Below, in pieces: positions 584 to 36,024 of a stretch of 36,024 bases of DNA. Below the pieces are notes generated by a model. That model was not told where the DNA came from. It searched no databases and worked only from the letters and a program-made list of their open reading frames with translations. Position 1 is the stretch's first letter, and every line of letters starts with the position of its first letter. This DNA is from a virus (Duplodnaviria > Heunggongvirae > Uroviricota > Caudoviricetes). The stretch lies in the IMG/VR virus record IMGVR_UViG_2609459800_000003. One strand, 5' to 3'. Position numbers and translations under genes: made by a program.

Positions 584-1597
584 TTACTCTACTGTGGACA
601 CTGTGTGGACACTCTCGGCCTCAGTACCACCTCTTAGCGGATTAAGAGAAATGGCGTCCTGAAGGTACTCTGGCGCAAAATGAGCGTAAACCATAGTTTG
701 CTCAATCCGCGTGTGACCTAGTATCCGTTGTAGCGTGATAATACTTCCTCCATTAATCATGAAATGAGTGGCAAAGCTGTGCCTTAGTGCATGTGTGGCT
801 TGCCCCGTTGGCAAATCCGGTTTTATTGCTTTCATTGTTCGTCTGAAGCGAGGGTAATCAGCATCAGGGAATAAAAAACCTCGTTTGTTATCCGCGATCA
901 TTTTGGCAACAGCCTCTGAGATCGGGACGGTGCGTGGTTTGTTTGTTTTCGTTTTAACAAACGTGACGCGGTTATGGATGATATTTTCTGCTTTCAAACG
1001 AGCTGCTTCTCCCCAACGTGCTCCTGTACTCAGGCAAAGAATCGCAATCTTTTTATTGTCGCCGTCAAGTGCTGCAAGCAGTAAGGCAATTTCTTCCTGT
1101 GTGAGATAGCCTGTTTCTGGTTTTTCCTCCTTAAGCCTCTTTGTCCCTCTGATAGGGTGCTCACCAAAGAATAACTCCGCTTCAATCAGGGCTGTAAACA
1201 TGCCGCTAATACATGTTAAATCACGATTGATACTCGAAGGTTTAATACCCTGACTTCTTCGGGTGGCGCAGTACTGGCTGATAAGGGATTTCGTGATTTG
1301 AAATGCGCATGGGTCATTCGTTATTTTTGTGAAGATTTCAATTTTTCCAAGATTAGATTTCCCATGCTCTTCGTGTTTACCCTTTAAATCCCACCAGATC
1401 TGTGTCAGTTCCGACAGACGTCGTTTGTCTGTTGGTTTTGATAGCCATTCTTTATTGTGGTGGTTGTACAACGTGTATTTTTCGAAAGCGACAGCTTCGC
1501 TTTTCTTATCAAACTTCCTACGGATGCGTTTTCCGTTACGTCCAGTAGGGCGGATGTCCACTTCATATCGACCATCATCGAGTTTTTTGATTGCCAT
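584..1597 (-). CDS. int: P2-type integrase (tyrosine recombinase)
   Basis: 337 aa, ATG at 1595..1597 with GGAGGG Shine-Dalgarno upstream; C-terminal catalytic region HALRHSFATHF...LGHTRIEQTMVYAH (R-H-R-Y type); adjacent to attL and divergent from the late genes as in P2. Confidence 0.95.
   Translation of the reverse strand: MAIKKLDDGRYEVDIRPTGRNGKRIRRKFDKKSEAVAFEKYTLYNHHNKEWLSKPTDKRRLSELTQIWWDLKGKHEEHGKSNLGKIEIFTKITNDPCAFQITKSLISQYCATRRSQGIKPSSINRDLTCISGMFTALIEAELFFGEHPIRGTKRLKEEKPETGYLTQEEIALLLAALDGDNKKIAILCLSTGARWGEAARLKAENIIHNRVTFVKTKTNKPRTVPISEAVAKMIADNKRGFLFPDADYPRFRRTMKAIKPDLPTGQATHALRHSFATHFMINGGSIITLQRILGHTRIEQTMVYAHFAPEYLQDAISLNPLRGGTEAESVHTVSTVE
593..611. promoter_or_regulatory. 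putative Int arm-type binding sites (direct repeats TGTGGACA x2, 11 bp apart) in the int-proximal att arm
   Basis: TGTGGACA at 593..600 and 604..611; related TGTGG(T/A)C copies at 34433..34439 and 34444..34450 in the ogr-proximal arm. Identification as arm sites is from memory of P2 attP organisation. Confidence 0.45.
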
Positions 1598-1712: not shown

Positions 1713-2012
1713 TTAACCAGTCTTTTGACCGGAGTGGGGCGACGTTGTTTCGTTTTGCCCAAAGTGTGCGAGAGCGGGCGCAATTTGCCCGGACTCAGGA
1801 GCGATCTGATTGGTCATGAACCATAAAGTGTATTTGGTGAATTGTGGGGTCTGCAGGATGTTCATCATGACATCTGTTGGAGGTGTTGAACGACCACTTT
1901 CATAGTAACTCAGCGTGCCATACGGAACCCCTGTTAAATCAGCAAGTTGTTGTCTGCTCAAATACTCAGATTTTCGCATTAAGACTATCTTCTCGCTTAT
2001 CGTGTTTGACAT
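1713..2012 (-). CDS. C: immunity repressor C
   Basis: 99 aa (same as P2 C), N-terminal HTH (SRQQLADLTGVPYGTLSYYESG); located between int and cox, transcribed divergently from cox. Confidence 0.9.
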   Translation of the reverse strand: MSNTISEKIVLMRKSEYLSRQQLADLTGVPYGTLSYYESGRSTPPTDVMMNILQTPQFTKYTLWFMTNQIAPESGQIAPALAHFGQNETTSPHSGQKTG

Positions 2013-3670: not shown

Positions 3671-3894
3671 TGCCGGACAACGTAGATTTTATTCAGGAAC
3701 AACAGGCTGAATTACTGGAGCGTCAGATTAACGCGGCAAGGGTAAAACATTGCGGTGCTTCTGCGCTGGTTTGCGAAGAGTGTGACGCGCCAATACCTGC
3801 TGCCCGTCGTGCGGCTTATCCGTCAGCCACGCGTTGTGTTTCCTGCCAGTCAGTCTTTGAAGCAAAAAACAAACATTACCGGAGAACGGCATGA
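3670..3894 (+). CDS. TraR/DksA-like C4 zinc-finger protein (P2 orf82 position)
   Basis: 74 aa with CxxC...CxxC (CEEC...CVSC); ATG overlaps the upstream stop (TAATG). Confidence 0.7.
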   Translation: MPDNVDFIQEQQAELLERQINAARVKHCGASALVCEECDAPIPAARRAAYPSATRCVSCQSVFEAKNKHYRRTA

Positions 3895-4166
3895 GTATTC
3901 GTATTGAAATTGGCGAACGTTATGTCGTTACCAGTGACAGCTTTCAGTTTATTCTCCACGAGAAAAAGAGAGCGGAAAGCGGTAAAAACGCCGGTCAGGA
4001 ATGGCTGGCGGTGGTTGGTTATTATCCGAAATTAAGCCAGCTCGTTTCCGGCCTGATGCATCACGATATTCTGACCGGAAGCGCAAAGTCTTTTGCTGAT
4101 TTAAACGCGCAGGTTGAGCAACTCAGCAGGCGTTGTTCAGAGGCTTTTGGCTCATATGGCCGTTAA
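3891..4166 (+). CDS. hypothetical early protein (P2 orf83 position)
   Basis: 91 aa; ATG 3891 after GGAGAA; ATGA overlap with the upstream stop; 3' end overlaps the A start. Confidence 0.65.
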   Translation: MSIRIEIGERYVVTSDSFQFILHEKKRAESGKNAGQEWLAVVGYYPKLSQLVSGLMHHDILTGSAKSFADLNAQVEQLSRRCSEAFGSYGR

Positions 4167-6441
4167 AGCCTCCGGGCGTTTTGTCCCTCCGTCAGCATTT
4201 GCCGCAGGCACCGGTAAGGCGTTTGCCGGTGCTTATGCATGGAACGCGCCACGCGAGGCTGTCGGGCGCGAAAGACCCCTTACACGTGACGAGATGCGTC
4301 AGGTGCAAGGTGTTTTATCCACGATTAACCGCCTGCCTTACTTTTTGCGCTCGCTGTTTACTTCACGCTATGACTACATCCGGCGCAATAAAAGCCCGGT
4401 GCACGGGTTTTATTTCCTCACATCCACTTTTCAGCGTCGTTTATGGCCGCGCATTGAGCGTGTGAATCAGCGCCATGAAATGAACACCGACGCGTCGTTG
4501 CTGTTTCTGGCAGAGCGTGACCACTATGCGCGCCTGCCGGGAATGAATGACAAGGAGCTGAAAAAGTTTGCTGCCCGTATCTCATCGCAGCTTTTCATGA
4601 TGTATGAGGAACTCTGTGATGCCTGGGTGGATGCGCATGGCGAAAAAGAATCGCTGTTTACGGATGAGGCGCAGGCTCACCTCTATGGTCATGTTGCTGG
4701 CGCTGCACGTGCTTTCAATATTTCCCCTCTCTACTGGAAAAAATACCGTAAAGGGCAGATGACCACGAGGCAGGCATATTCTGCCATTGCCCGTCTGTTT
4801 AACGATGAGTGGTGGACTCATCAGCTTAAAGGCCAGCGTATGCGCTGGCATGAGGCGTTACTGATTGCTGTCGGGGAGGTAAATAAAGACCGTTCACCTT
4901 ATGCCAGTAAACATGCCATTCGTGATGTGCGTGCGCGCCGCCAGGCAAATCTGGAATTTCTTAAATCGTGTGACCTTGAAAACAGGGAAACCGGCGAACG
5001 CATCGACCTTATCAGTAAGGTGATGGGCAGTATTTCTAATCCTGAAATTCGCCGGATGGAGCTGATGAACACCATTGCCGGTATTGAGCGTTACGCCGCC
5101 GCAGAGGGTGATGTGGGGATGTTTATCACGCTGACCGCGCCGTCAAAGTATCACCCGACTCGTCAGGTCAGAAAAGGCGAAAGTAAAACCGTTCAGCTTA
5201 ATCACGGCTGGAACGATGAGGCATTTAATCCAAAGGATGCGCAGCGTTATCTCTGCCGCATCTGGAGCCTGATGCGCACGGCATTCAAGGATAATGATTT
5301 ACAGGTCTACGGTTTGCGTGTCGTCGAGCCACACCACGACGGAACGCCGCACTGGCATATGATGCTTTTTTGTAATCCACGCCAGCGTAACCAGATTATC
5401 GAAATCATGCGTCGCTATGCGCTCAAAGAGGATGGTGACGAAAGAGGAGCCGCGCGAAACCGTTTTCAGGCAAAACACCTTAACCGGGGCGGTGCTGCGG
5501 GATATATCGCAAAATACATCTCAAAAAATATCGACGGCTATGCACTGGATGGTCAGCTCGATAACGATACCGGCAGGCCGCTGAAAGACACTGCAGCGGC
5601 TGTTACCGCATGGGCGTCAACGTGGCGCATCCCGCAATTTAAAACGGTTGGTCTGCCGACAATGGGGGCTTACCGTGAACTACGCAAATTGCCTCGCGGC
5701 GTCAGCATTGCTGATGAGTTTGACGAGCGCGTCGAGGCTGCACGCGCCGCTGCAGACAGTGGTGATTTTGCGTTGTATATCAGCGCGCAGGGCGGGGCAA
5801 ATGTCCCGCGCGATTGTCAGACTGTCAGGGTCGCCCGTAGCCCGTCGGATGACGTTAACGAGTACGAGGAAGAAGTCGAGAGAGTGGTCGGCATTTACGC
5901 GCCGCATCTCGGCGCGCGTCATATTCATATCACCAGAACGACGGACTGGCGCATTGTGCCGAAAGTGCCGGTCGTTGAGCCTTTGACTTTAAAAAGCGGC
6001 ATCGCCGCGCCTCGGAGTCCTGTCAATAACTGTGGAAAGCTCTCCGGTGGTGATACTTCGTTACCGGTTCCCACACCTTCTGAACATGCCGCAGCCGTGC
6101 TTAATCTGGTTGATGACGGTGTTATCGAATGGAATGAGCCAGAGGTCGTGAGGGCGCTCAGAGGTGCATTAAAACACGGACTGAGAACACCAAATCGTCA
6201 GCAGAGAAACGGAAGCCTGTTAAAACCACATGAAATAGCGCCATCGGCCAGACTGACCCGGTCGGAACGAACGCAAATTACCCGTATCCGCGTTGACCTT
6301 GCTCAGAACGGTATCAGGCCGCAGCGATGGGAGATTGAGGCGCTGGCGCGTGGGGCAACCGTAAATTATGACGGGAAAAAATTCACGTATCCGGTCGCTG
6401 ATGAGTGGCCGGGATTCTCAACAGTAATGGAGTGGACATGA
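4156..6441 (+). CDS. A: rolling-circle replication initiator A (nickase)
   Basis: 761 aa from ATG 4156 (MAVKASGRFVPP...), the N-terminus I recall for P2 A; the track ORF from 4114 is an upstream extension. Conserved HxH-type motif (PHWHMMLF) and tyrosine-containing region (GYIAKYISKN) typical of phiX174/P2-type Rep proteins. Confidence 0.95.
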   Translation: MAVKASGRFVPPSAFAAGTGKAFAGAYAWNAPREAVGRERPLTRDEMRQVQGVLSTINRLPYFLRSLFTSRYDYIRRNKSPVHGFYFLTSTFQRRLWPRIERVNQRHEMNTDASLLFLAERDHYARLPGMNDKELKKFAARISSQLFMMYEELCDAWVDAHGEKESLFTDEAQAHLYGHVAGAARAFNISPLYWKKYRKGQMTTRQAYSAIARLFNDEWWTHQLKGQRMRWHEALLIAVGEVNKDRSPYASKHAIRDVRARRQANLEFLKSCDLENRETGERIDLISKVMGSISNPEIRRMELMNTIAGIERYAAAEGDVGMFITLTAPSKYHPTRQVRKGESKTVQLNHGWNDEAFNPKDAQRYLCRIWSLMRTAFKDNDLQVYGLRVVEPHHDGTPHWHMMLFCNPRQRNQIIEIMRRYALKEDGDERGAARNRFQAKHLNRGGAAGYIAKYISKNIDGYALDGQLDNDTGRPLKDTAAAVTAWASTWRIPQFKTVGLPTMGAYRELRKLPRGVSIADEFDERVEAARAAADSGDFALYISAQGGANVPRDCQTVRVARSPSDDVNEYEEEVERVVGIYAPHLGARHIHITRTTDWRIVPKVPVVEPLTLKSGIAAPRSPVNNCGKLSGGDTSLPVPTPSEHAAAVLNLVDDGVIEWNEPEVVRALRGALKHGLRTPNRQQRNGSLLKPHEIAPSARLTRSERTQITRIRVDLAQNGIRPQRWEIEALARGATVNYDGKKFTYPVADEWPGFSTVMEWT

Positions 6442-6893
6442 TGGCAAAAATTCACGAGGTAAAGCTGCACGCAAAATATTTCGACCTTGTGCTGGAAGGA
6501 AAGAAACGCGCAGAGTTTAGGAAAAATGACCGTAATTATGAGCACGGGGACACGTTGATTTTGCATGAATGGGTGCAGGGTGTGTATACGGGGCGAAAGG
6601 TTGAAGTCCGGATAACAGATGTTACTGACCTGTCAGATTGGCTGGAAGATTATGTCTTGCTAAGTATTGAGCTGCTTAATACAGGCGCATATGAGATTGT
6701 GAACTGGAAAGAACTTAGTGAGCGTGGTCTGGTATTCAGAATTAATCATGAAATTATGCATCAGCTCGGCCTTGCTGTTATGTATGAACCAGAGACGGGG
6801 ATGTCTGGCGGGGCAATGGTTGCCACGGATGGAGCATGGAACTATTCAGATGAACAGATGGAGCGTGCACCGCAAAACGGGTGGCTTGGATAA
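6438..6893 (+). CDS. DUF3850/ASCH-like (PUA-fold) domain protein with uncharacterised C-terminal extension
   Basis: ATG 6438 overlaps the A stop (ATGA) and follows GGAGTGG; N-terminal about 75 aa (HEVKLHAKYFDLVLEGKKRAEFRKNDRNYEHGDTLILHEW) fits the DUF3850/ASCH pattern as I remember it. The track start at 6405 is GTG inside A. Confidence 0.6.
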   Translation: MMAKIHEVKLHAKYFDLVLEGKKRAEFRKNDRNYEHGDTLILHEWVQGVYTGRKVEVRITDVTDLSDWLEDYVLLSIELLNTGAYEIVNWKELSERGLVFRINHEIMHQLGLAVMYEPETGMSGGAMVATDGAWNYSDEQMERAPQNGWLG

Positions 6894-7099
6894 TGCACAG
6901 AATACCAGGCGAGATACCGCACCATAAAACTAAAAATATCAAGCTGATGGCCATTGTTCACCGTCTACAGCAGATTATGGTCAACGAAAATCTGACGCCC
7001 GATGAGCTAGTCGGGTGTGCCGAAATAGTCCGGGATAATTACGTATGGCTTAACTATATCGGTCAGTCCAGCGCTGCACCGCCACCACGCAGACGATAG
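6893..7099 (+). CDS. small hypothetical protein (68 aa)
   Basis: ATG at 6893 overlaps the upstream stop (TAATG); the track start at 6881 is GTG. No recognisable motif. Confidence 0.4.
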   Translation: MHRIPGEIPHHKTKNIKLMAIVHRLQQIMVNENLTPDELVGCAEIVRDNYVWLNYIGQSSAAPPPRRR

Positions 7100-7287
7100 A
7101 GAACGCAGCCAGCTCAGGATTGGCGGGGGATAGAATAACGAGCATAGTGATGCGATTAGACAAACAGACTGACTGGTACACTTAGGATGGTTATAGTGGT
7201 TTCTAAGTGCTTTAGCGATACATCTGGTGGAGTGTTTTACCAACCTCAGAGTTAGCTGAATTTTTAACAAAATACCATTTTGATAGA

Positions 7288-7316
7288 TTTGCCTAATTTA
7301 TTAATTAAACTATACT
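7288..7316 (+). promoter_or_regulatory. candidate sigma70-type promoter for the 7408..8408 module
   Basis: TTTGCC (7288..7293), 17-bp spacer, TATACT (7311..7316) in the AT-rich stretch upstream of the 78-aa ORF; visual match only. Confidence 0.25.
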
Positions 7317-7407
7317 GGACTTATACACAGTGTTCTGTTAATTGTTAGGTTGGTAAGATATTGTGAGGAGGTGATTACTATCTTGGCATCAATCAAGTGG
7401 AGGTTAA

Positions 7408-7644
7408 ATGATGAATATATTTGAACGTATTATAGGTAAAGCTGCCATTGAAAAGGAAAGAGAACTGGCGAGGAGGCTTGAAGCATCTGGAACAAACACT
7501 GTTGAGGTGGTAGGTCGAGGCGCGATTATCACGTCTAAAGAAGACTTGGCAAGCTCAGATACAGTAAAATTGATGAAAATTAAAGCAAGAAGAATAGTTT
7601 CTGAGCAGGTAAAGCAAGAAGAAAAAATGGCTAAAGGGAATTAA
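7408..7644 (+). CDS. small charged hypothetical protein (78 aa), first gene of a two-gene cargo module
   Basis: ATG 7408 with strong GGAGG 5 nt upstream; AT-rich codon usage; stop 3 nt before the next start. Confidence 0.55.
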   Translation: MMNIFERIIGKAAIEKERELARRLEASGTNTVEVVGRGAIITSKEDLASSDTVKLMKIKARRIVSEQVKQEEKMAKGN

Positions 7645-7646
7645 TA

Positions 7647-8408
7647 ATGTTTGCTTTATTAATTATTCCATTACTTGTGAGTGGTTATATTGTATTAACC
7701 ACTCATCCTTATCATTTCTATAGATTACACCGTTATGATGGGCAGTTGTTATATATGAAGTCAGCCGCCTTTGGTCTGTGGTGTTTTATATGGACATTGA
7801 TTATAGCTTACTTAATAAAATGGATATGTCCGAGCTTCCATCCTGTCACGATGGTTCGGGAACAATTAGATCTCAAACTTAGTGACAATGGTACTGAAAG
7901 AATCATAGGATGGATGATTTTACTTTCATGTGGATCGATATTTTTGGCTTGGATATGGAGTGCCGGTGCTAGATATTTGGTTATATATAGAGCTAAAATT
8001 ATAAATTATATCCAAGGGGTAAAGGCTGCCAATATTGATTATGAGAATCTTGTCATGCTAAGGATGAGGCAAGAGCTTATTAATGATAATCCAATGGATG
8101 AAATATTTTTTGATTCGTTAGTTGATAGACGTTCAATACTTATTACGTTGCAAAATAAAAAGACATATGTAGGAATTGTTAACGCATTAGGTGAGCCTAA
8201 CGAGAAAGAAGGACCTAACCAGTATGTTTCAATCTATCCTATTATCTCTGGGTATAGAGATAAGGATTCATTGAAAGTAATCTTGGTGAATGAATATAGA
8301 GAACTTGAGGATGCTGATACTAGTATCATCTTTCCACTAAAAGAAATTTCGCAAGTTTCTTGGTTTGATATGGATATTCATAAAATAGTTGAAAATAATA
8401 AGGTGTAG
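7647..8408 (+). CDS. membrane protein with three predicted N-terminal TM helices and a soluble C-terminal domain of about 145 aa, function unknown
   Basis: 253 aa; hydrophobic segments around residues 2-19, 40-59 and 86-105; AT-rich; tightly coupled to the upstream 78-aa ORF; no catalytic motif recognised. Confidence 0.7.
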   Translation: MFALLIIPLLVSGYIVLTTHPYHFYRLHRYDGQLLYMKSAAFGLWCFIWTLIIAYLIKWICPSFHPVTMVREQLDLKLSDNGTERIIGWMILLSCGSIFLAWIWSAGARYLVIYRAKIINYIQGVKAANIDYENLVMLRMRQELINDNPMDEIFFDSLVDRRSILITLQNKKTYVGIVNALGEPNEKEGPNQYVSIYPIISGYRDKDSLKVILVNEYRELEDADTSIIFPLKEISQVSWFDMDIHKIVENNKV

Positions 8409-8411
8409 TAA

Positions 8412-8436
8412 ATGGTCACCTATAAAAGGTGACCAT
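8412..8436. terminator. bidirectional hairpin between convergent cargo operons
   Basis: Perfect 10-bp inverted repeat ATGGTCACCT / AGGTGACCAT with 5-nt loop, between the stop at 8408 (+) and the stop at 8442 (-); T-rich stretch on the + side. Confidence 0.5.
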
Positions 8437-8441
8437 AATGC

Positions 8442-10706
8442 TTATTTTTGACGAATCCTGATTTTTGGTTGTTCACGAACAACAATATCAGTTTCTTTCC
8501 AACCAAGATTATTTATTTCAACCTCGGCTTCGTTGTAGACTGTAGTAGAATTGGCAAGAGATCTTAACGTAATAGCCAATACAGCACGTTGAGGTGAAGA
8601 TAGAGGCTCTTGCTCTGCTCGTCTCTGAACATCAAGTTTAAGTCTCCATTGCTCCCCATTTATACCTTGCGGAAATTGTTTTCTATAAACTTTGACTGGA
8701 GACCATTTGAAGCCATTTTCTATCAGTACCTTTTCAAATAATTCACTCTTTTCTTTTATTTGTGGAATTTTTCCGCTATGTATCCATTTAGCGTTAACTG
8801 GATCATAAGTGTAAGTCCCGAATGACACATCCACATTAGAACGGCAATATTCAGATGGGTAGTCATAATCAAGCGGTGGAGAATAAACGAGTGTCATAAT
8901 AATTTCACCTGTGAATTTTCCATCCTCAGTACGTAATGACTGTGGTATTACAAATGGCGTTCTACTGAATTCAATACCTTCTCGGGTATCTATTTCAAAT
9001 AGAAATGTAATCTCATTTTTATTGCAACCAATAATATCATTTATATGATCGCTTGGACGTCCAAATCCTTGATAATTAAACGCATAATGCTCCGTTTTGG
9101 CTGGTGAGTTTTTTAACGCAGAATGAATTAATAGTGCCTTGATACGTTCAGGCGATGGTGAAATAGAACCATTAACATCTAGTTCATGCCACAGTGATGC
9201 CGCTAAACTTGAGATTAACGGTGCTGATAAACTTGTGCCAATACTTTCGCAAAGAGCATTGTCCTCGCCAATAGCTATGATTCCGGTATGTTCACAGTTT
9301 AATTTACTGTCACAATTACCTCCAAAGTGATTTATCTCTGGTTTGGGTATAAAGGCTGGGCCGGGACCTCTTCTAGAAAAAGATGAAGGTTCAAATCTTT
9401 TGACCACAGAGTCAGACGATTCTAAATGGGCAACTGAGCCAACAGTTAATGAACGAACAGAATCTGCGGGGGCTGATATTCTGTCATGCCCACCTAATTC
9501 TTGAGGAGGCCAGGTTCGTTGAGGATCATAAATGTAGTTGCCGGATGCTACGACGAAAAGACAATCATGCTCATCATGAAGTGCATTTAAAAAATGCCCC
9601 AATTCAGAGAAGCTGTCTTCAGAACATGGGGATTGACAACCTAATGACAGGTTCCATACACGTACTTCTGGATAGGTGGTCACAGCCTCTCGGATAGCTT
9701 TCATTAATTGTGGCAATTTGAGCGTACCATCTTTGGGAAAGGCTGCAACATCAACAATTTCAGCTTGGCATTGAGGAAAACCAGCATAGTTATTCAACCA
9801 TCTTCCATTAATTGCTAAACTTGCAACCATGTTCCCATGAGAATAGTCGTGTTCTCCTTTTACTAAATCTAAACTATCCCAAATCCATGGCCTAAGTATG
9901 TTGTTATTGGGATCGACTCCGCTATCTATAATTCCGAGTAGTGGATAATGTTTATCCTCTTGAGGTAAGGGAAAATCATCTAGGTCTAGAGTTTCAGCAG
10001 GAATATATTGCGATACTGTATGAGTAAGACCAAATGTTGGCATAGGTTCTAATTTTCGTATGCCAATAAAACTTGCCAGTTGGGCGATGTTATCATTCCC
10101 TTTTACTTCATATATACTCAAATCTGAACTGATATCATACTTTTTGGGTTTTTGTATTCCTAGTTCATCTGCAAATTCCATTAATTCTTTGTCGATACTG
10201 CGGTTAGTTGTTCTATCTTTATGGTCAAAGAGTTTCAGAAGAAAACTATCTGATTTATTTTTATCTATAACATCATGGTTAAGACTAAAAGGTTCGATCT
10301 TTTCAATTACAGCAATATGTACTGTCCCATTATGAGAATTAGTGCTATTTTCAATTTTTTTGCGAAGTTGTGCTAACCCTTTTTCAGTAACACTTATAAG
10401 TAATTCTCCAAAATTATCACTGCCTATTACGGGACATGTATTATCACCTAATAGGCTTGATGGGCGATGTGACTTAGCAAGAGCTTTTTCATGAAGAGTA
10501 ACTCTAGCCACCGCCGGTATATTGGGCCATTTTTTAAATGAGCTCTGGAAAAAATTTTTAACGTCATCGACTTCTTGTTTGAGTCTATTTTTTAGACTAG
10601 TTGTTACTGTTCGGATAGGTTGTTTCTTTCCGAAATTATATGTTTTTTCAGTAAAATCTTGAGGTGTCGCCTCAATTATTTTTATTGGTCTTTCTTTGTT
10701 ACTCAT
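8442..10706 (-). CDS. subtilisin-like serine protease (peptidase S8), cytoplasmic; IetS-like
   Basis: 754 aa; full subtilase signature: Asp (GIIDSGVD), His (HGNMVASLAING), oxyanion Asn (VVASGNY), Ser (GTSLSAPLISSLAA); no N-terminal signal peptide; N- and C-terminal extensions of about 250 aa each around the catalytic core; start overlaps the stop of the upstream ATPase. Confidence 0.9.
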   Translation of the reverse strand: MSNKERPIKIIEATPQDFTEKTYNFGKKQPIRTVTTSLKNRLKQEVDDVKNFFQSSFKKWPNIPAVARVTLHEKALAKSHRPSSLLGDNTCPVIGSDNFGELLISVTEKGLAQLRKKIENSTNSHNGTVHIAVIEKIEPFSLNHDVIDKNKSDSFLLKLFDHKDRTTNRSIDKELMEFADELGIQKPKKYDISSDLSIYEVKGNDNIAQLASFIGIRKLEPMPTFGLTHTVSQYIPAETLDLDDFPLPQEDKHYPLLGIIDSGVDPNNNILRPWIWDSLDLVKGEHDYSHGNMVASLAINGRWLNNYAGFPQCQAEIVDVAAFPKDGTLKLPQLMKAIREAVTTYPEVRVWNLSLGCQSPCSEDSFSELGHFLNALHDEHDCLFVVASGNYIYDPQRTWPPQELGGHDRISAPADSVRSLTVGSVAHLESSDSVVKRFEPSSFSRRGPGPAFIPKPEINHFGGNCDSKLNCEHTGIIAIGEDNALCESIGTSLSAPLISSLAASLWHELDVNGSISPSPERIKALLIHSALKNSPAKTEHYAFNYQGFGRPSDHINDIIGCNKNEITFLFEIDTREGIEFSRTPFVIPQSLRTEDGKFTGEIIMTLVYSPPLDYDYPSEYCRSNVDVSFGTYTYDPVNAKWIHSGKIPQIKEKSELFEKVLIENGFKWSPVKVYRKQFPQGINGEQWRLKLDVQRRAEQEPLSSPQRAVLAITLRSLANSTTVYNEAEVEINNLGWKETDIVVREQPKIRIRQK

Positions 10707-11866
10707 AATATCTCTCTATAGTTCTTAGTTAGCCTTGACACTTTAGCATTTGAAAGCCCTAGTATTTTTGCTATCTTTCGTATTGTAAATCTTTTGGGAT
10801 TGTATTCTCTGAGAGTGGTCACAATCTTTATAAGTAAATTATCTTCTTCATCAAATGTAACTCCCTTCGCTTCTAAGATAGCCTCGACTAAAAATCGGGT
10901 ATCGATTTGTTTATTATTGTAAACCAGAGCGTGTCGCTCAGATCTTAAGCAGCATTGTTCTATAAATGAGCAGTTTAGCCCTGAGGATATTTCCGCAAGG
11001 TCATCAACAAAATCGTCATATGTGGCTTTTATGTTTGAATATTGTTCAAATAGTTGTTTTCTGACTTCAAAATCAGGCAATCCAATAGATATTCTATACT
11101 CAAAGCGCCTCCAAACTGCGCTATCTAGAAGATTTTCATGATTACTTGCAGCAATCAATATTGTTTCTTCAGGTAGATTGTCAATATTTTGCAATAAAGA
11201 AACCACCACCCTCTTCAGTTCACCTAACTCATGCTGATCATCTCTAGCCTTTGCTAGAGAATCTAGTTCATCTAGAAATAAAACACATGGTGCTTTACTT
11301 GCATACTCAAATAGCTGCCTGATATTTTTAGAAGTAGACCCCAGATATGATGAGACTAAGGAGTCACATCTTGCAGTAAGAAGCGGTAAATTTAGACAGG
11401 ATGCAATATATTTTGATGTCAAGGTTTTACCACAACCTGGTGGCCCATATAAAATCATAGAGGATGTCACGCCAAGACCGGCATCCTTTAATTCTTTAGC
11501 TCGTTCAGTGAAAGTCAAAAATTCTTTAATTTTTTTCAGAGTGCTATCTTTCAACAATGGGAGTTGAATTTCAGAAGACGGTTGAGTTACGTCTGCTAAA
11601 TCAAATTTAGTTTCTTTATCTACAGGTAATGTATCAAGACGTTCAAAAATAGGTGATGTACTACGTGATACTTTCTGCAAGTTAAACGTGTTTTTATCTT
11701 GAATACTACCTCTAATGGCTGAAGCAAGCTCAGGCAGCCCCATAGAATCATAGGAACGCGCGAGTTTCGAAGCCTGCCGAACAAAAGCAACTTTATCCCC
11801 TTTGAGTCCAAGACTGATAAGCTGCGAAAGTATCTCGTTTGTGGTCATTTGTGATACAAACCTCAT
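10703..11866 (-). CDS. classic-clade AAA+ ATPase with C-terminal HTH-like tail; IetA-like
   Basis: 387 aa; Walker A GPPGCGKT, Walker B VLFLDELD, sensor-1/arginine-finger region (AASN...WRRFEYRISIGLP); C-terminal KRFTIRKIAKILGLSNAKVSRLTK resembles an HTH. Start codon uncertain (ATG at 11866 has no clear SD; an in-frame ATG lies 18 nt downstream). Confidence 0.9.
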   Translation of the reverse strand: MRFVSQMTTNEILSQLISLGLKGDKVAFVRQASKLARSYDSMGLPELASAIRGSIQDKNTFNLQKVSRSTSPIFERLDTLPVDKETKFDLADVTQPSSEIQLPLLKDSTLKKIKEFLTFTERAKELKDAGLGVTSSMILYGPPGCGKTLTSKYIASCLNLPLLTARCDSLVSSYLGSTSKNIRQLFEYASKAPCVLFLDELDSLAKARDDQHELGELKRVVVSLLQNIDNLPEETILIAASNHENLLDSAVWRRFEYRISIGLPDFEVRKQLFEQYSNIKATYDDFVDDLAEISSGLNCSFIEQCCLRSERHALVYNNKQIDTRFLVEAILEAKGVTFDEEDNLLIKIVTTLREYNPKRFTIRKIAKILGLSNAKVSRLTKNYREIL

Positions 11867-12107
11867 TAATCTGTTGTCTAAATGGCTTATAGGTGAGACA
11901 AATTTCTATTTTAATGTAGTTTATATGTATTTTGGTGAAACGAACACTATGTTTTACATAAATCTTTCAGGTTTGGAGTTCTTGGAGGGCATAGAGTTGC
12001 ATCAATTTGCATTCTAATTAGACTTTTTTATTGCTATCGTATTCTACATGTGACTAGGTCTGCCCTTCCTGATGCGTTTGCATTAAAACCGCCCCATGAA
12101 GCGGGCG

Positions 12108-12126
12108 GGCGAGGCGGGGAAAGCAC
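12108..12126. other. cos cohesive-end site (GGCGAGGCGGGGAAAGCAC)
   Basis: Exact 19-nt sequence I recall as the P2/186 cohesive end, in the expected position upstream of the Q-P packaging genes in a GC-rich stretch. Confidence 0.6.
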
Positions 12127-12295: not shown

Positions 12296-13330
12296 TCAGC
12301 CGTTGTCAGTGTCCAGTGAGTAGTTTTTAAAGCGGATGACCTCCTGACCGAGCCAGCCGTTTATCTCGCGGATCCTGTCCTGTAACGGGATAAGCTCATT
12401 GCGGACAAAGACCTTTGCCACTTTCTCAATATCACCCAGCGACCCGACGTTCTCCGGCTTGCCGCCCATCAACTGAAAGGGGATGCGGTGCGCGTCCAGC
12501 AGGTCAGCGGCGCTGGCTTTTTTGATATTAAAAAAATCGTCCTTCGTCGCCACTTCACTGAGGGGGATAATTTTAATGCCGTCGGCTTTCCCCTGCGGGG
12601 CATAGAGAAACAGATTTTTAAAGTTATTGCGGCCTTTCGACTTAACCATGTTTTCGCGAAGCATTTCGATATCGTTGCGATCCTGCACGGCATCGGTGAC
12701 GTACATGATGTATCCGGCATGTGCGCCGTTTTCGTAATACTTGCGGCGGAACAGCGTGGCCGACTCATTCAGCCAGGCAGAGTTAAGGGCGCTGAGATAT
12801 TCCGGCAGGCCGTACAGCTCCTGATTAATATCGGGCTCCAGCAGGTGAAACACGGAGCCGGGCGCGAAGGCTGTCGGCTCGTTGAAGGACGGCACCCACC
12901 AGTAAACATCCTCTTCCACGCCACGACGGGTATATTTTGCCGGTGAGGTTTCCAGTCTGATGACCTTACCGGTGGTGCTGTAGCGCTTTTCCAGAAACGC
13001 ATTACCGAACACCAGAAAATCCAGCACAAAACGGCTGAAATCCTGCTGGGAAAGCCACGGGTGCGGGATAAACGTTGAAGCCAGAATATTACGTTTGACG
13101 TAAATCGGTGAGCTGTGATGCACGGCAGCACGCAGGCTTTTTGCCAGACCGGTAAAGCTGACCGGCGGCTCATACCATCTGCCGTTACTGATACATTCGA
13201 CGTAATCCAGAATGTCACGGCGGTCGAGCACCGGCACCGGCTCACCAAAGGTGAATGCCTCCATTTTCGGGGCGCTGGCGGTCATTTTTTTTGCCGCAGG
13301 TTGCGGTGTTTTCCCTTTTTTCTTGCTCAT
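12296..13330 (-). CDS. Q: portal protein Q
   Basis: 344 aa as in P2 Q; start overlaps the P stop (ATGA). Confidence 0.92.
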   Translation of the reverse strand: MSKKKGKTPQPAAKKMTASAPKMEAFTFGEPVPVLDRRDILDYVECISNGRWYEPPVSFTGLAKSLRAAVHHSSPIYVKRNILASTFIPHPWLSQQDFSRFVLDFLVFGNAFLEKRYSTTGKVIRLETSPAKYTRRGVEEDVYWWVPSFNEPTAFAPGSVFHLLEPDINQELYGLPEYLSALNSAWLNESATLFRRKYYENGAHAGYIMYVTDAVQDRNDIEMLRENMVKSKGRNNFKNLFLYAPQGKADGIKIIPLSEVATKDDFFNIKKASAADLLDAHRIPFQLMGGKPENVGSLGDIEKVAKVFVRNELIPLQDRIREINGWLGQEVIRFKNYSLDTDNG

Positions 13331-26709: not shown

Positions 26710-26890
26710 GTTGTATGAGCTTACATATCTATTGCGTAGAGTAAAGCATAATCTGACAGTCCGCTCTGTGCCAGAAGCGGACGTAGCGGCAGCATACATA
26801 ACCTTATGATTTCTTAAAATTTTCCGCTTGGTTTCTGATTGACTAATGAAAATTAATTGAAATTATAAAGCATTCGCAGTAACTTGTGCG

Positions 26891-27136
26891 GTGCCGATAA
26901 TTTCATTCTACCCAATATCATTTATGATTGTAGATAAGAGTAGTGAAAAATATAACAACGGATATAGTGTTGCAATACCACTTGGAGCCGTGAAAATGGA
27001 ACTGGCCGATGATGTACTAAAAATAAACCTTTCATCATGGAATGATATTAAAACAGGATTTCCTTACACAGGGATTAATGAGTATGAGTTACTCATATTA
27101 GATGAGAATCTTTCATTTATAACTTATAAAAAATAA
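26891..27136 (+). CDS. hypothetical small protein at the Z/fun locus (start uncertain)
   Basis: The track start at 26891 is GTG; in-frame ATGs at 26924 and 26996, the latter preceded by GGAG (a 46-aa product). AT-rich; no motif recognised. Confidence 0.35.
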   Translation: MPIISFYPISFMIVDKSSEKYNNGYSVAIPLGAVKMELADDVLKINLSSWNDIKTGFPYTGINEYELLILDENLSFITYKK

Positions 27137-27191
27137 CAATTAACAATACTTCACTTATGTGTGAGTGGTTTTAAAGAGTAAATAATTCATA

Positions 27192-27494
27192 ATGGAAAAA
27201 AGTATGACAATTGAAACCATAAAAATACTAGCGGCAATTAGTAGCATCATTGGTTCTATGATTCTTGCCTATCGAGTTACAGGGATTCTTGCAGCACTTT
27301 CTCTTGCAATAAATTGCCATGAAGAAAACATTAAACAATTAATGCCAACCAATAAGGGGGATGTTTATTATCTCGCAAATGCAACTACGCACGTTAAAAA
27401 TGCGCAAAAGAAACCGCTTCTAATCACGGGGTTTATCTTTCTAATTGCATCTGGTTTTTTGCAGTTTACAGCGTTGATAATGGCAAATATTTAA
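27192..27494 (+). CDS. small membrane protein with two predicted TM helices, Z/fun locus cargo
   Basis: 100 aa; hydrophobic segments around residues 10-30 and 75-98; AT-rich; weak Shine-Dalgarno; followed by a terminator at 27664..27690. Confidence 0.5.
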   Translation: MEKSMTIETIKILAAISSIIGSMILAYRVTGILAALSLAINCHEENIKQLMPTNKGDVYYLANATTHVKNAQKKPLLITGFIFLIASGFLQFTALIMANI

Positions 27495-27663
27495 CAATGG
27501 AATGATACCACCGGTGGTGCGGCTGAAACGATTTGTACGTCATTTAAGCCGCATCGAAATTTAAAGTAACGTCCGCAATTCGCTCCAAGCAGACTGTCAG
27601 ATTTGATAGCGTTTCGGCTATGTAAATAGTCAGTCGGAAAATAAGTGAGTACAAATCAGGACA

Positions 27664-34089: not shown

Positions 34090-34170
34090 TGTTTTTATTT
34101 TATCTATTTGTTTTATAAGGATAAATTAACTAAAATGGCACCATCAACAAAACCGGAAGAGGTGCTCGCG

Positions 34171-34389
34171 ATGTTTCATTGTCCTTTATGCCAGCATGCC
34201 GCACATGCGCGTACAAGCCGCTATATCACTGACACGACAAAAGAGCGTTATCACCAGTGTCAGAACGTGAATTGCAGCGCCACGTTCATCACTTATGAGT
34301 CGGTACAGCGATACATCGTAAAGCCGGGAGAAGTCCACGCCGTAAGGCCGCACCCGTTACCGTCAGGGCAGCAAATTATGTGGATGTAA
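34171..34389 (+). CDS. ogr: late gene activator Ogr (zinc-finger transcription factor)
   Basis: 72 aa from ATG 34171 (MFHCPLCQHAAHARTSRYITDTTKERYHQCQNVNCSATF...), with the C2-C2 zinc-binding cysteines; the track ORF from 34108 is an upstream extension. Confidence 0.92.
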   Translation: MFHCPLCQHAAHARTSRYITDTTKERYHQCQNVNCSATFITYESVQRYIVKPGEVHAVRPHPLPSGQQIMWM

Positions 34390-34662: not shown

Positions 34663-36024
34663 TCACTTACCGTGGGGATTACGCGTGGTTTCCCCGGAGA
34701 AATTACGCATCAGCAGCGCGTAATTGAGCTCAAGATCCTGCGGGACCGGGAGCCACACAGTATAACCATCGCCTGGTGCTATCGGCATAGCTTCGCCTTT
34801 GGCGTTTTCCATGTGCTCAAGGGTAAAATTAATGTTGCCTTGCGGCGTCATCAGCTCAAGGCTGTCGCCAACGGAGAATTTATTTTTCACCGCTACCGCC
34901 GCGAGGTCCCCCTTGCGCTCACCGGTAAACTCACCAACAAACTGCTGGCGGTCAGAAACTGAATAACCGTATTCGTAGTTCTGATAATCGTCGTGAGTAT
35001 GACGACGCAGGAAACCTTCGGTATAGCCACGATGCGCCAGACCTTCCAGAGTTTCCAGCAGGCTGGTATCGAACGGTTTTCCCGCAGCGGCGTCATCGAT
35101 AGCTTTGCGGTAAACCTGTGCGGTGCGTGCACAATAGTAGAAAGATTTGGTACGACCTTCGATTTTCAGCGAATGCACGCCCATTTTGGTCAGGCGTTCT
35201 ACATGGGCGATGGCGCGCAGATCTTTCGAGTTCATGATGTAAGTGCCGTGCTCATCTTCAAACGCGGTCATATACTCGCCCGGACGCTGGGCCTCTTCGA
35301 TCATAAACACTTTGTCGGTTGGTGCGCCGATACCCAGCGTCGGCTCAACATTTTGCACCGGAATCGGCTCGTACTTGTGTACGATGTTGCCAACATCATC
35401 TTCTTTCCCTTCCTGGACGTTGTACTCCCAGCGGCAGGCGTTGGTGCAGGTGCCCTGGTTCGGGTCGCGCTTGTTGATATAGCCAGAGAGCAGGCAGCGA
35501 CCGGAGTAGGCCATGCACAGCGCGCCGTGAACGAAGATCTCGATCTCCATATCCGGCACCTGATTGCGGATCTCTTCAATCTCTTCCAGCGACAGCTCGC
35601 GAGAGAGGATCACGCGGGTCAGGCCCATTTGCTGCCAGAATTTCACCGTCGCCCAGTTCACGGCGTTAGCCTGCACCGAAAGGTGGATCGGCATTTCAGG
35701 GAAGTGCTCACGCACCAGCATAATCAGCCCTGGATCGGACATAATCAGCGCATCCGGCCCCATTTCCACCACCGGTTTCAGGTCACGGATAAAGGTTTTC
35801 AGCTTGGCGTTGTGCGGTGCAATGTTGACCACGACATAAAACTTTTTCCCCAGCGCGTGGGCTTCATTGATGCCGAGCTGAAGATTTTCGTGGTTGAATT
35901 CGTTGTTGCGCACACGCAGGGAATAACGCGGCTGGCCCGCATAAACAGCATCTGCGCCATAAGCGAAAGCGTAACGCATATTTTTCAGCGTTCCCGCCGG
36001 GGAAAGGAGTTCCGGTTTAAACAT
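34663..36024 (-). CDS. yegQ: peptidase U32 family protein YegQ
   Basis: 453 aa, the size of the E. coli yegQ product; U32-type conserved cysteine region (...GALCMAYSGRCLLSGY...CTNACRW); adjacent to cyaR as in E. coli K-12. Confidence 0.8.
   Translation of the reverse strand: MFKPELLSPAGTLKNMRYAFAYGADAVYAGQPRYSLRVRNNEFNHENLQLGINEAHALGKKFYVVVNIAPHNAKLKTFIRDLKPVVEMGPDALIMSDPGLIMLVREHFPEMPIHLSVQANAVNWATVKFWQQMGLTRVILSRELSLEEIEEIRNQVPDMEIEIFVHGALCMAYSGRCLLSGYINKRDPNQGTCTNACRWEYNVQEGKEDDVGNIVHKYEPIPVQNVEPTLGIGAPTDKVFMIEEAQRPGEYMTAFEDEHGTYIMNSKDLRAIAHVERLTKMGVHSLKIEGRTKSFYYCARTAQVYRKAIDDAAAGKPFDTSLLETLEGLAHRGYTEGFLRRHTHDDYQNYEYGYSVSDRQQFVGEFTGERKGDLAAVAVKNKFSVGDSLELMTPQGNINFTLEHMENAKGEAMPIAPGDGYTVWLPVPQDLELNYALLMRNFSGETTRNPHGK

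Follow-up and report, generated by a model that had tools for sequence, protein, structure and literature searches.

The window analysed here, a stretch of 36,024 nucleotides (nt) from the IMG/VR virus record IMGVR_UViG_2609459800_000003, is a P2-like Escherichia coli prophage that is 100% identical to strain SC480 across the searched region. Between its replication gene A and its cos site lies an AT-rich island with two modules that converge on each other: an operon for an AAA+ ATPase and an S8 protease on the minus strand, which is the defence system IetAS, and a pair of unannotated genes on the plus strand, which encode a small protein and a membrane protein. Are these two arms separate passengers of a cargo hotspot, or do they belong to one system? 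The preliminary description of this DNA, made from its letters alone, presented them as separate candidates. Two modules are indeed present, but within the IetAS clade of the window they are inherited as one four-gene unit. The hotspot and IetAS were already known; the strictly linked, convergent arrangement of the four genes is new. It is absent from PADLOC 2.0 and NCBIfam, and searches of the literature by RefSeq accession and by concept found no mention of it.

The IetAS operon and its convergent neighbour

The identity of the minus-strand operon leaves little room for doubt, and the outline given from the letters (ATPase and protease) could be sharpened to IetAS, with both components present at full length. 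The gene ietA (10703..11866, minus strand; start at 11848 in RefSeq) encodes an AAA+ ATPase of 387 amino acids (aa) that matches the PADLOC model PDLC02196 over its full length (9.1e-132) and Pfam AAA (1.1e-31), with G141PPGCGKT as Walker A and VLFLDELD as Walker B motif. It is followed by ietS (8442..10706, minus strand), which encodes an S8 subtilase-family protease of 754 aa matching Pfam Peptidase_S8 and PADLOC PDLC02197 (1.1e-273, positions 1-747 of the 749 in the profile). The catalytic residues D261, H290 and S492 of IetS and its oxyanion residue N390 are invariant in an alignment of 19 sequences (A2). The two genes overlap by 4 nt, which suggests translational coupling; an ATPase gene followed by an overlapping gene for a protease of about 750 aa is also the layout of IetAS as known elsewhere. 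Both proteins score below the NCBIfam equivalog cut-offs (IteS, 782 bits against 900; IteA, 387 against 510), which places the window's IetAS in a diverged clade. For this reason RefSeq names them only "S8 family peptidase" and "AAA family ATPase", and surveys that rely on annotation names will miss the clade.

IetAS is said to be a defence system of Gao et al. 2020, and ietA and ietS were reportedly first described as a plasmid-stability pair of pTiC58. In E. coli the system is frequently carried by prophages. It is a validated defence system that began as a pair of protease toxin and ATPase antitoxin for plasmid stability, and its anti-phage mechanism is not known (PMC13069673). The IetAS of Bacillus consists of two genes and acts by abortive infection, with a phage protein as trigger (10.1101/2022.08.27.505566).

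The convergent arm is made of a gene for a small partner protein of 78 aa (7408..7644, plus strand) and one for a membrane protein of 253 aa (7647..8408, plus strand), the latter with three transmembrane helices, a cytoplasmic loop and a C-terminal Sm-like beta-barrel. Between the two convergent stop codons lies a single hairpin (8412..8436) that the two arms share. It has a 10-bp stem and a folding z-score of -4.9, none of 200 shuffled sequences folds as well, and it is likely a bidirectional terminator. The hairpin and the four open reading frames (ORFs) lie where the preliminary description had put them.

Inheritance of the four genes as a unit

Relatives of the membrane protein at 76% (Pectobacterium) and 56% (Salmonella/Citrobacter) identity are again encoded convergently to an AAA/S8 pair. 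We assessed this association starting from IetS, so that the sampling was not biased by the membrane pair itself, with 80 metagenomic and 19 viral IetS loci and a number of targeted look-ups. The pair is found immediately downstream and convergent in 17 of the 17 loci whose IetS is at least 58% identical to that of the window, that is, in the enterobacterial clade. At 45% identity or less, it is found in none of about 85 loci. Across the divergence of the clade, to about 55% identity, no locus has one intact arm and lacks the other. Arsenophonus endosymbionts were considered as carriers of an intact pair without IetAS and could be ruled out: their copies, the only in-clade pairs that lack IetAS, are pseudogenes with in-frame stops and frameshifts, and lie beside GpA fragments.

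The four proteins have diverged together, as the pairwise identities across nine lineages are tightly correlated between them (r = 0.95-0.99). In each of the 11 lineages that we examined, the two stop codons lie 24-48 nt apart and one strong hairpin takes up this gap, with a sequence that is replaced between lineages. As a control, we computed how often two IetS loci have a homologous downstream ORF in common as a function of IetS identity, keeping in mind that locus pairs are not independent. At 97% identity or more, this was the case for 13 of 15 locus pairs in other IetS clades and for 26 of 26 in the clade with the pair. The counts were 2 of 10 and 35 of 35 between 90 and 97%, and 1 of 134 and 290 of 290 between 50 and 90%. 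Hence, other IetS clades lose their downstream neighbour below about 90% IetS identity, and the clade of the window keeps it.

The four genes also stay intact where their surroundings do not. They are full-length in decayed P2 remnants (L007/8, L011, L073, L183, L187/8) in which the prophage is reduced to fragments of GpA and portal genes. A lambdoid prophage (L157/8) has the complete four-gene unit as well, located between its replication genes and its Q antiterminator region; co-transfer of the arms by way of P2 flanks is no explanation there. Finally, the backbone of locus L017 is as near to the window as that of L014, yet its cassette is about 57% identical to that of the window, against about 89% for L014. 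This discordance between cassette and backbone divergence indicates that cassettes are exchanged whole. The strict linkage and co-divergence of the four genes, and their intact state in prophages that have decayed, can be stated with high confidence for this clade.

Outside the clade, in L171-L173 (around 3700-4700), an IetAS whose IetS is 51% identical is followed by another convergent pair, in which a 216-aa protein with a start resembling a signal peptide is joined by a 57-aa ORF that resembles a lipoprotein. This is a hint that neighbours associated with the envelope, in convergent orientation, may exist in further IetAS lineages.

How much of the linkage could arise without any interaction between the arms? 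The island could hold two independent modules of one hotspot, a complete IetAS and a separate accessory pair that acts, for example, in superinfection exclusion or in membrane-acting abortive infection. The two would then be co-inherited by block exchange through the conserved flanks and by the separate usefulness of each arm, an explanation that we consider quite possible even if not the more probable one. Several observations speak for it and weigh against a functional unit. Recombination in conserved flanks would move the cargo as a block even if the arms never interacted, and marker searches placed nearly all cassette loci in A-to-portal hotspots of the P2 family or in their decayed remnants. 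Since most contexts are thus one and the same, we downgraded the argument from many independent contexts. The lineages of the cassette number about 10 and are not independent, and some of the loci were found through the membrane protein. The convergent arms are not co-transcribed. The two IetS of intermediate identity (56% and 51%) come without the pair, and the pair is found among housekeeping genes outside Enterobacterales. In PADLOC, it matches no defence model. The preliminary description had proposed both modules as candidates for defence or exclusion, and this stands for IetAS as a known defence system; the plus-strand module is at most a candidate for a role in defence. Last, each arm exists alone elsewhere, as shown by the two-gene IetAS of Bacillus, by the roughly 85 distant IetAS loci and by pairs in phages, plasmids and chromosomes.

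Solitary pairs are not hard to find. Cronobacter phage phiES15 and a very common lambdoid prophage of E. coli each have the pair, alone, in the interval from integrase to attP, and Salmonella phage SEN5 has it alone in the very same A-to-portal hotspot. A copy at 33% identity is present on 26 Salmonella plasmids. In the Klebsiella P2-like phage ST15-OXA48phi14.1 (L181, 3783-6492), the A-to-portal hotspot carries a distantly related version of the pair (72 aa and 280 aa), and behind it a 69-aa ORF and then a gene of the defence system bSEFIR (PADLOC 6.9e-103).

Against this independence of the arms stands the behaviour of the hotspot itself, whose cargo is reported to undergo very fast swapping and recombination (PMC13586616), yet not one intact lone arm was seen in the clade. 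It is this speed that makes the persistence of the four-gene unit notable. The shedding of neighbours in the control clades and the intact move into a lambdoid phage also argue against mere co-residence. Selection on the unit is further suggested by the discordance between cassette and backbone, by the full-length genes in reduced prophages and by the decay of the Arsenophonus pairs that lack IetAS. On this evidence, we give slightly less than an even chance to the full reading in which the pair is functionally coupled to the enterobacterial IetAS lineage and the cassette is kept together by selection.

What could such a coupled system do? By homology with characterised IetAS, IetA would restrain the protease IetS until a phage cue is perceived, and proteolysis by IetS would then arrest or kill the infected cell, resulting in abortive infection. 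The convergent arm is an old autonomous operon that ends in the shared hairpin; its products are a small cytoplasmic protein with the VVGRG motif and a protein of the inner membrane whose Sm-like barrel faces the cytoplasm. In the enterobacterial lineage, this operon may have come to work together with IetAS, as a sensor, a regulator or an effector arm located in the membrane. Judging from the fold, the membrane-anchored barrel could oligomerise or bind a ligand, and the small partner could regulate it.

There is a precedent for such a recruitment in ietHAS (Liu-DS4), a three-gene variant in which IetAS has gained an essential SNF2 helicase on which both defence and the control of toxicity depend (PMC13069673). 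The additional gene of ietHAS encodes a helicase, whereas the window adds, on the opposite strand, genes for a small and a membrane protein, which might likewise be required. IetAS as hitherto defined has no membrane module, and in other IetAS systems two genes suffice for anti-phage activity; in contrast, the clade of the window always has the convergent two-gene membrane module and its IetAS was never seen without it. We tentatively propose that the pair may provide the obligate third and fourth components of IetAS in this clade, as a membrane-sited sensor or effector under the control of the IetS protease, in a four-gene system spread over two strands.

If this proposal is correct, it gives the first functional foothold among the membrane Sm-like proteins, a family with about 1300 clusters (50% identity). 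An IetAS lineage that never parted from its membrane module also gives a concrete and testable way into the question of what IetS perceives or acts upon. Since the pair lies on the opposite strand, operon-based searches would miss it, and functionally linked defence genes may sit on opposite strands, outside the reach of such searches. If the arms are independent, the island is a well-delimited cargo of two systems that is unusually long-lived in a hotspot of rapid turnover.

The membrane pair as an old and widespread operon

The plus-strand module is in itself an ancient, unannotated and new two-gene operon. Neither protein matches Pfam, PADLOC or NCBIfam; the only matches are PHROGs of unknown function (phrog_37504 being the sole match of the small protein), and profile searches against the sequences of the PDB gave nothing informative. 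The membrane-protein family counts about 1300 unannotated clusters (50% identity) at E <= 1e-10. In a survey of 58 loci with the membrane-protein gene, restricted to one genome per species, an ORF of 60-80 aa, homologous to the small-protein gene of the window, abuts this gene in most loci (gap of -4 to +20 nt). The signature V-x-G-R-G (VVGRG in the window, with G38 as an invariant glycine) is invariant in the small ORF, from Enterobacterales to Pseudomonas, Lautropia, Asticcacaulis and Legionella (alignments A4 and A5). A CsrA-like reading of the motif was rejected, as none of 24 family members has a Pfam CsrA match.

The small protein is predicted to fold into a helix, a beta-hairpin and a second helix (AlphaFold2 predicted local distance difference test score, pLDDT, of 77.8). 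In the membrane protein, the loop LHRYDGQLLYxK is conserved, positively charged and cytoplasmic. The C-terminal domain has the hallmarks of Sm/LSm/Hfq-like folds, an N-terminal helix and, after it, a five-stranded barrel with a strong bend. There is no sequence similarity between this barrel and the small beta-barrels of Sm/LSm/Hfq and WYL proteins, and it differs from them in being fused to three transmembrane helices; from the model, ring formation or ligand binding would be conceivable. The 253-aa protein has no full-length structural analogue in the PDB or among viral models. We considered an MscS-type channel, given the three transmembrane helices and the Sm-like beta domain, but the overall structural match to MscS fails. 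A gasdermin-type pore activated by a protease was also discarded: there is no gasdermin among the structural matches and no PADLOC gasdermin model was matched. A membrane effector under protease control is possible solely as an analogy.

Membrane proteins with a soluble partner, encoded on prophages or defence islands, are known from Kiwa KwaA, Zorya ZorAB and lambda RexB, which makes them analogues of the pair. We detected no relation in sequence or fold between them and the pair, and their PADLOC models remained unmatched.

Where the family occurs bears on whether the pair is a defence module at all. It could be a housekeeping or stress module related to membranes or RNA that serves lysogen fitness, or an addiction pair similar to toxin-antitoxin systems, in which case only IetAS would defend. 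The lack of matches in PADLOC, Pfam and NCBIfam fits this view, and so does the fact that Sm-like barrels typically bind RNA. The pair of Pseudomonas, Lautropia, Legionella and others is found among transporters of the major facilitator superfamily (MFS), TonB receptors and similar chromosomal genes, at an apparently conserved chromosomal site across related species. For this reason, it would be premature to ascribe defence to the family at large. However, all the Enterobacterales copies that we examined occupy accessory-gene positions of temperate phages or plasmids, twice directly beside validated defence systems, and the four genes of the cassette remain intact amid decaying prophages. We therefore regard a pair without any part in defence as unlikely in the window.

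With these distributions, a large unannotated family is flagged at accessory sites of P2-like and lambdoid phages and of IncC plasmids. The Klebsiella phage mentioned above is a second case, after the window, of a pair adjoining a validated defence system. On the Salmonella IncC plasmid pSTY1-2010K-1587 (L189, 1872-4789), one of the carriers of the 33%-identical copy, the pair lies directly downstream of a RecD-like ATPase that matches several PADLOC models of candidate systems.

The island in the P2 hotspot and the rest of the prophage

The island extends from 7113 to about 12070 (4.96 kb) and fills the slot between gene A and cos. It very probably is exchangeable cargo of the P2 defence hotspot at this position, which is documented as the GpA-to-GpQ (tin/old) slot (Rousset et al. 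2022, PMC9122126; Moura de Sousa et al. 2026, PMC13586616). The main text of neither study names IetAS or the membrane pair. The content of guanine and cytosine (GC) is 0.366 in the island (7113-12070), against 0.522 in the left and 0.570 in the right backbone, and GC at third codon positions is 0.25-0.32 in the four island genes against 0.55-0.71 in A, Q and P. Alignment to three P2-like prophages with other cargo gave sharp breakpoints, with homology up to 7112 on the left and again from 12069-12079 on the right, and the interval between them does not align to core P2 genes. These results agree with the preliminary description, which had recognised an AT-rich island in a known anti-phage hotspot, had called for a computed profile and for breakpoints, and would have given way to an alignment with core P2 genes or to a uniform composition. 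The published hotspot, the flanks and cos all point to the same slot.

The slot is common and its present content is rare. Of 5426 complete E. coli genomes, 2159 have the flanks and 12 have the whole island. Among 110 sequenced peduoviruses that match the flanks, most at 95-99%, none carries the island; their cargo in the same slot includes Fic/VbhT, a cytolethal distending toxin, ParB with a methyltransferase, MORC-like with Dcm, and DUF4209. The locus thus shows each of the features expected of P2 hotspot cargo, namely the position between GpA and cos or portal, conserved flanks with varying cargo and a break in composition. It has the slot, the flanks and the multiplicity of alternative cargo in common with the tin/old hotspot of P2, and is unusual in that its cargo has stayed together while the proteins diverged to about 55% identity.

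On the left, the backbone anchor is the replication gene A (4114..6441, plus strand; Pfam Phage_GPA, 5.9e-123). It is followed on the same strand by the gene of a DUF3850/ASCH and DUF7415 protein (6441-6893; Pfam and RefSeq annotation) and by a 68-aa ORF (6893-7099; RefSeq annotation) that separates it from the island. These two backbone genes (6441-7099) are 95-96% conserved in prophages with other cargo, as far as 7112. The left junction and the region 5' of the plus-strand module span 7113..7407 (plus strand). Promoter-like sites at 7289-7316 and 7383-7412 (plus strand) are matches to the consensus only; such matches are no commoner in the island than in shuffled sequence, and we therefore claim no promoter for it.

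On the right, the region upstream of ietAS and the island junction cover 11867..12070 (minus strand). The exact 19-mer GGCGAGGCGGGGAAAGCAC at 12108..12126 (plus strand), the cohesive-end sequence of P2 cos, has a chance expectation of 0.01 matches and anchors the right backbone. Further out lies the portal gene Q (12296..13330, minus strand; Pfam Phage_portal and RefSeq annotation). The layout of the prophage runs from int (584-1597, minus strand) and the repressor gene C (1713-2012, minus strand) on the left to ogr (34108-34389) on the right. The host gene yegQ (Peptidase_U32) adjoins the prophage and lies within the window at 34663-36024. Decayed P2 remnants adjacent to yegQ are also found in Enterobacter cloacae and in one metagenomic contig (L073, L187, L188), and they still carry the four-gene cassette intact.

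Two other places in the window may deserve attention. A second AT-rich pocket (26800-27500, GC of 0.32) lies directly after the tail-fibre assembly gene, at the Z/fun accessory slot of P2, and holds two small ORFs (26891-27136 and 27192-27494) without Pfam or PADLOC match. Outside the integrase gene, the first 521 nt have a lower GC (0.42) and two small ORFs (1-318 and 306-521) that have no PADLOC match, the former, which was scanned against Pfam, having no match there either. The interval between integrase and att, in which these ORFs may lie, is a reported minor defence hotspot of P2.

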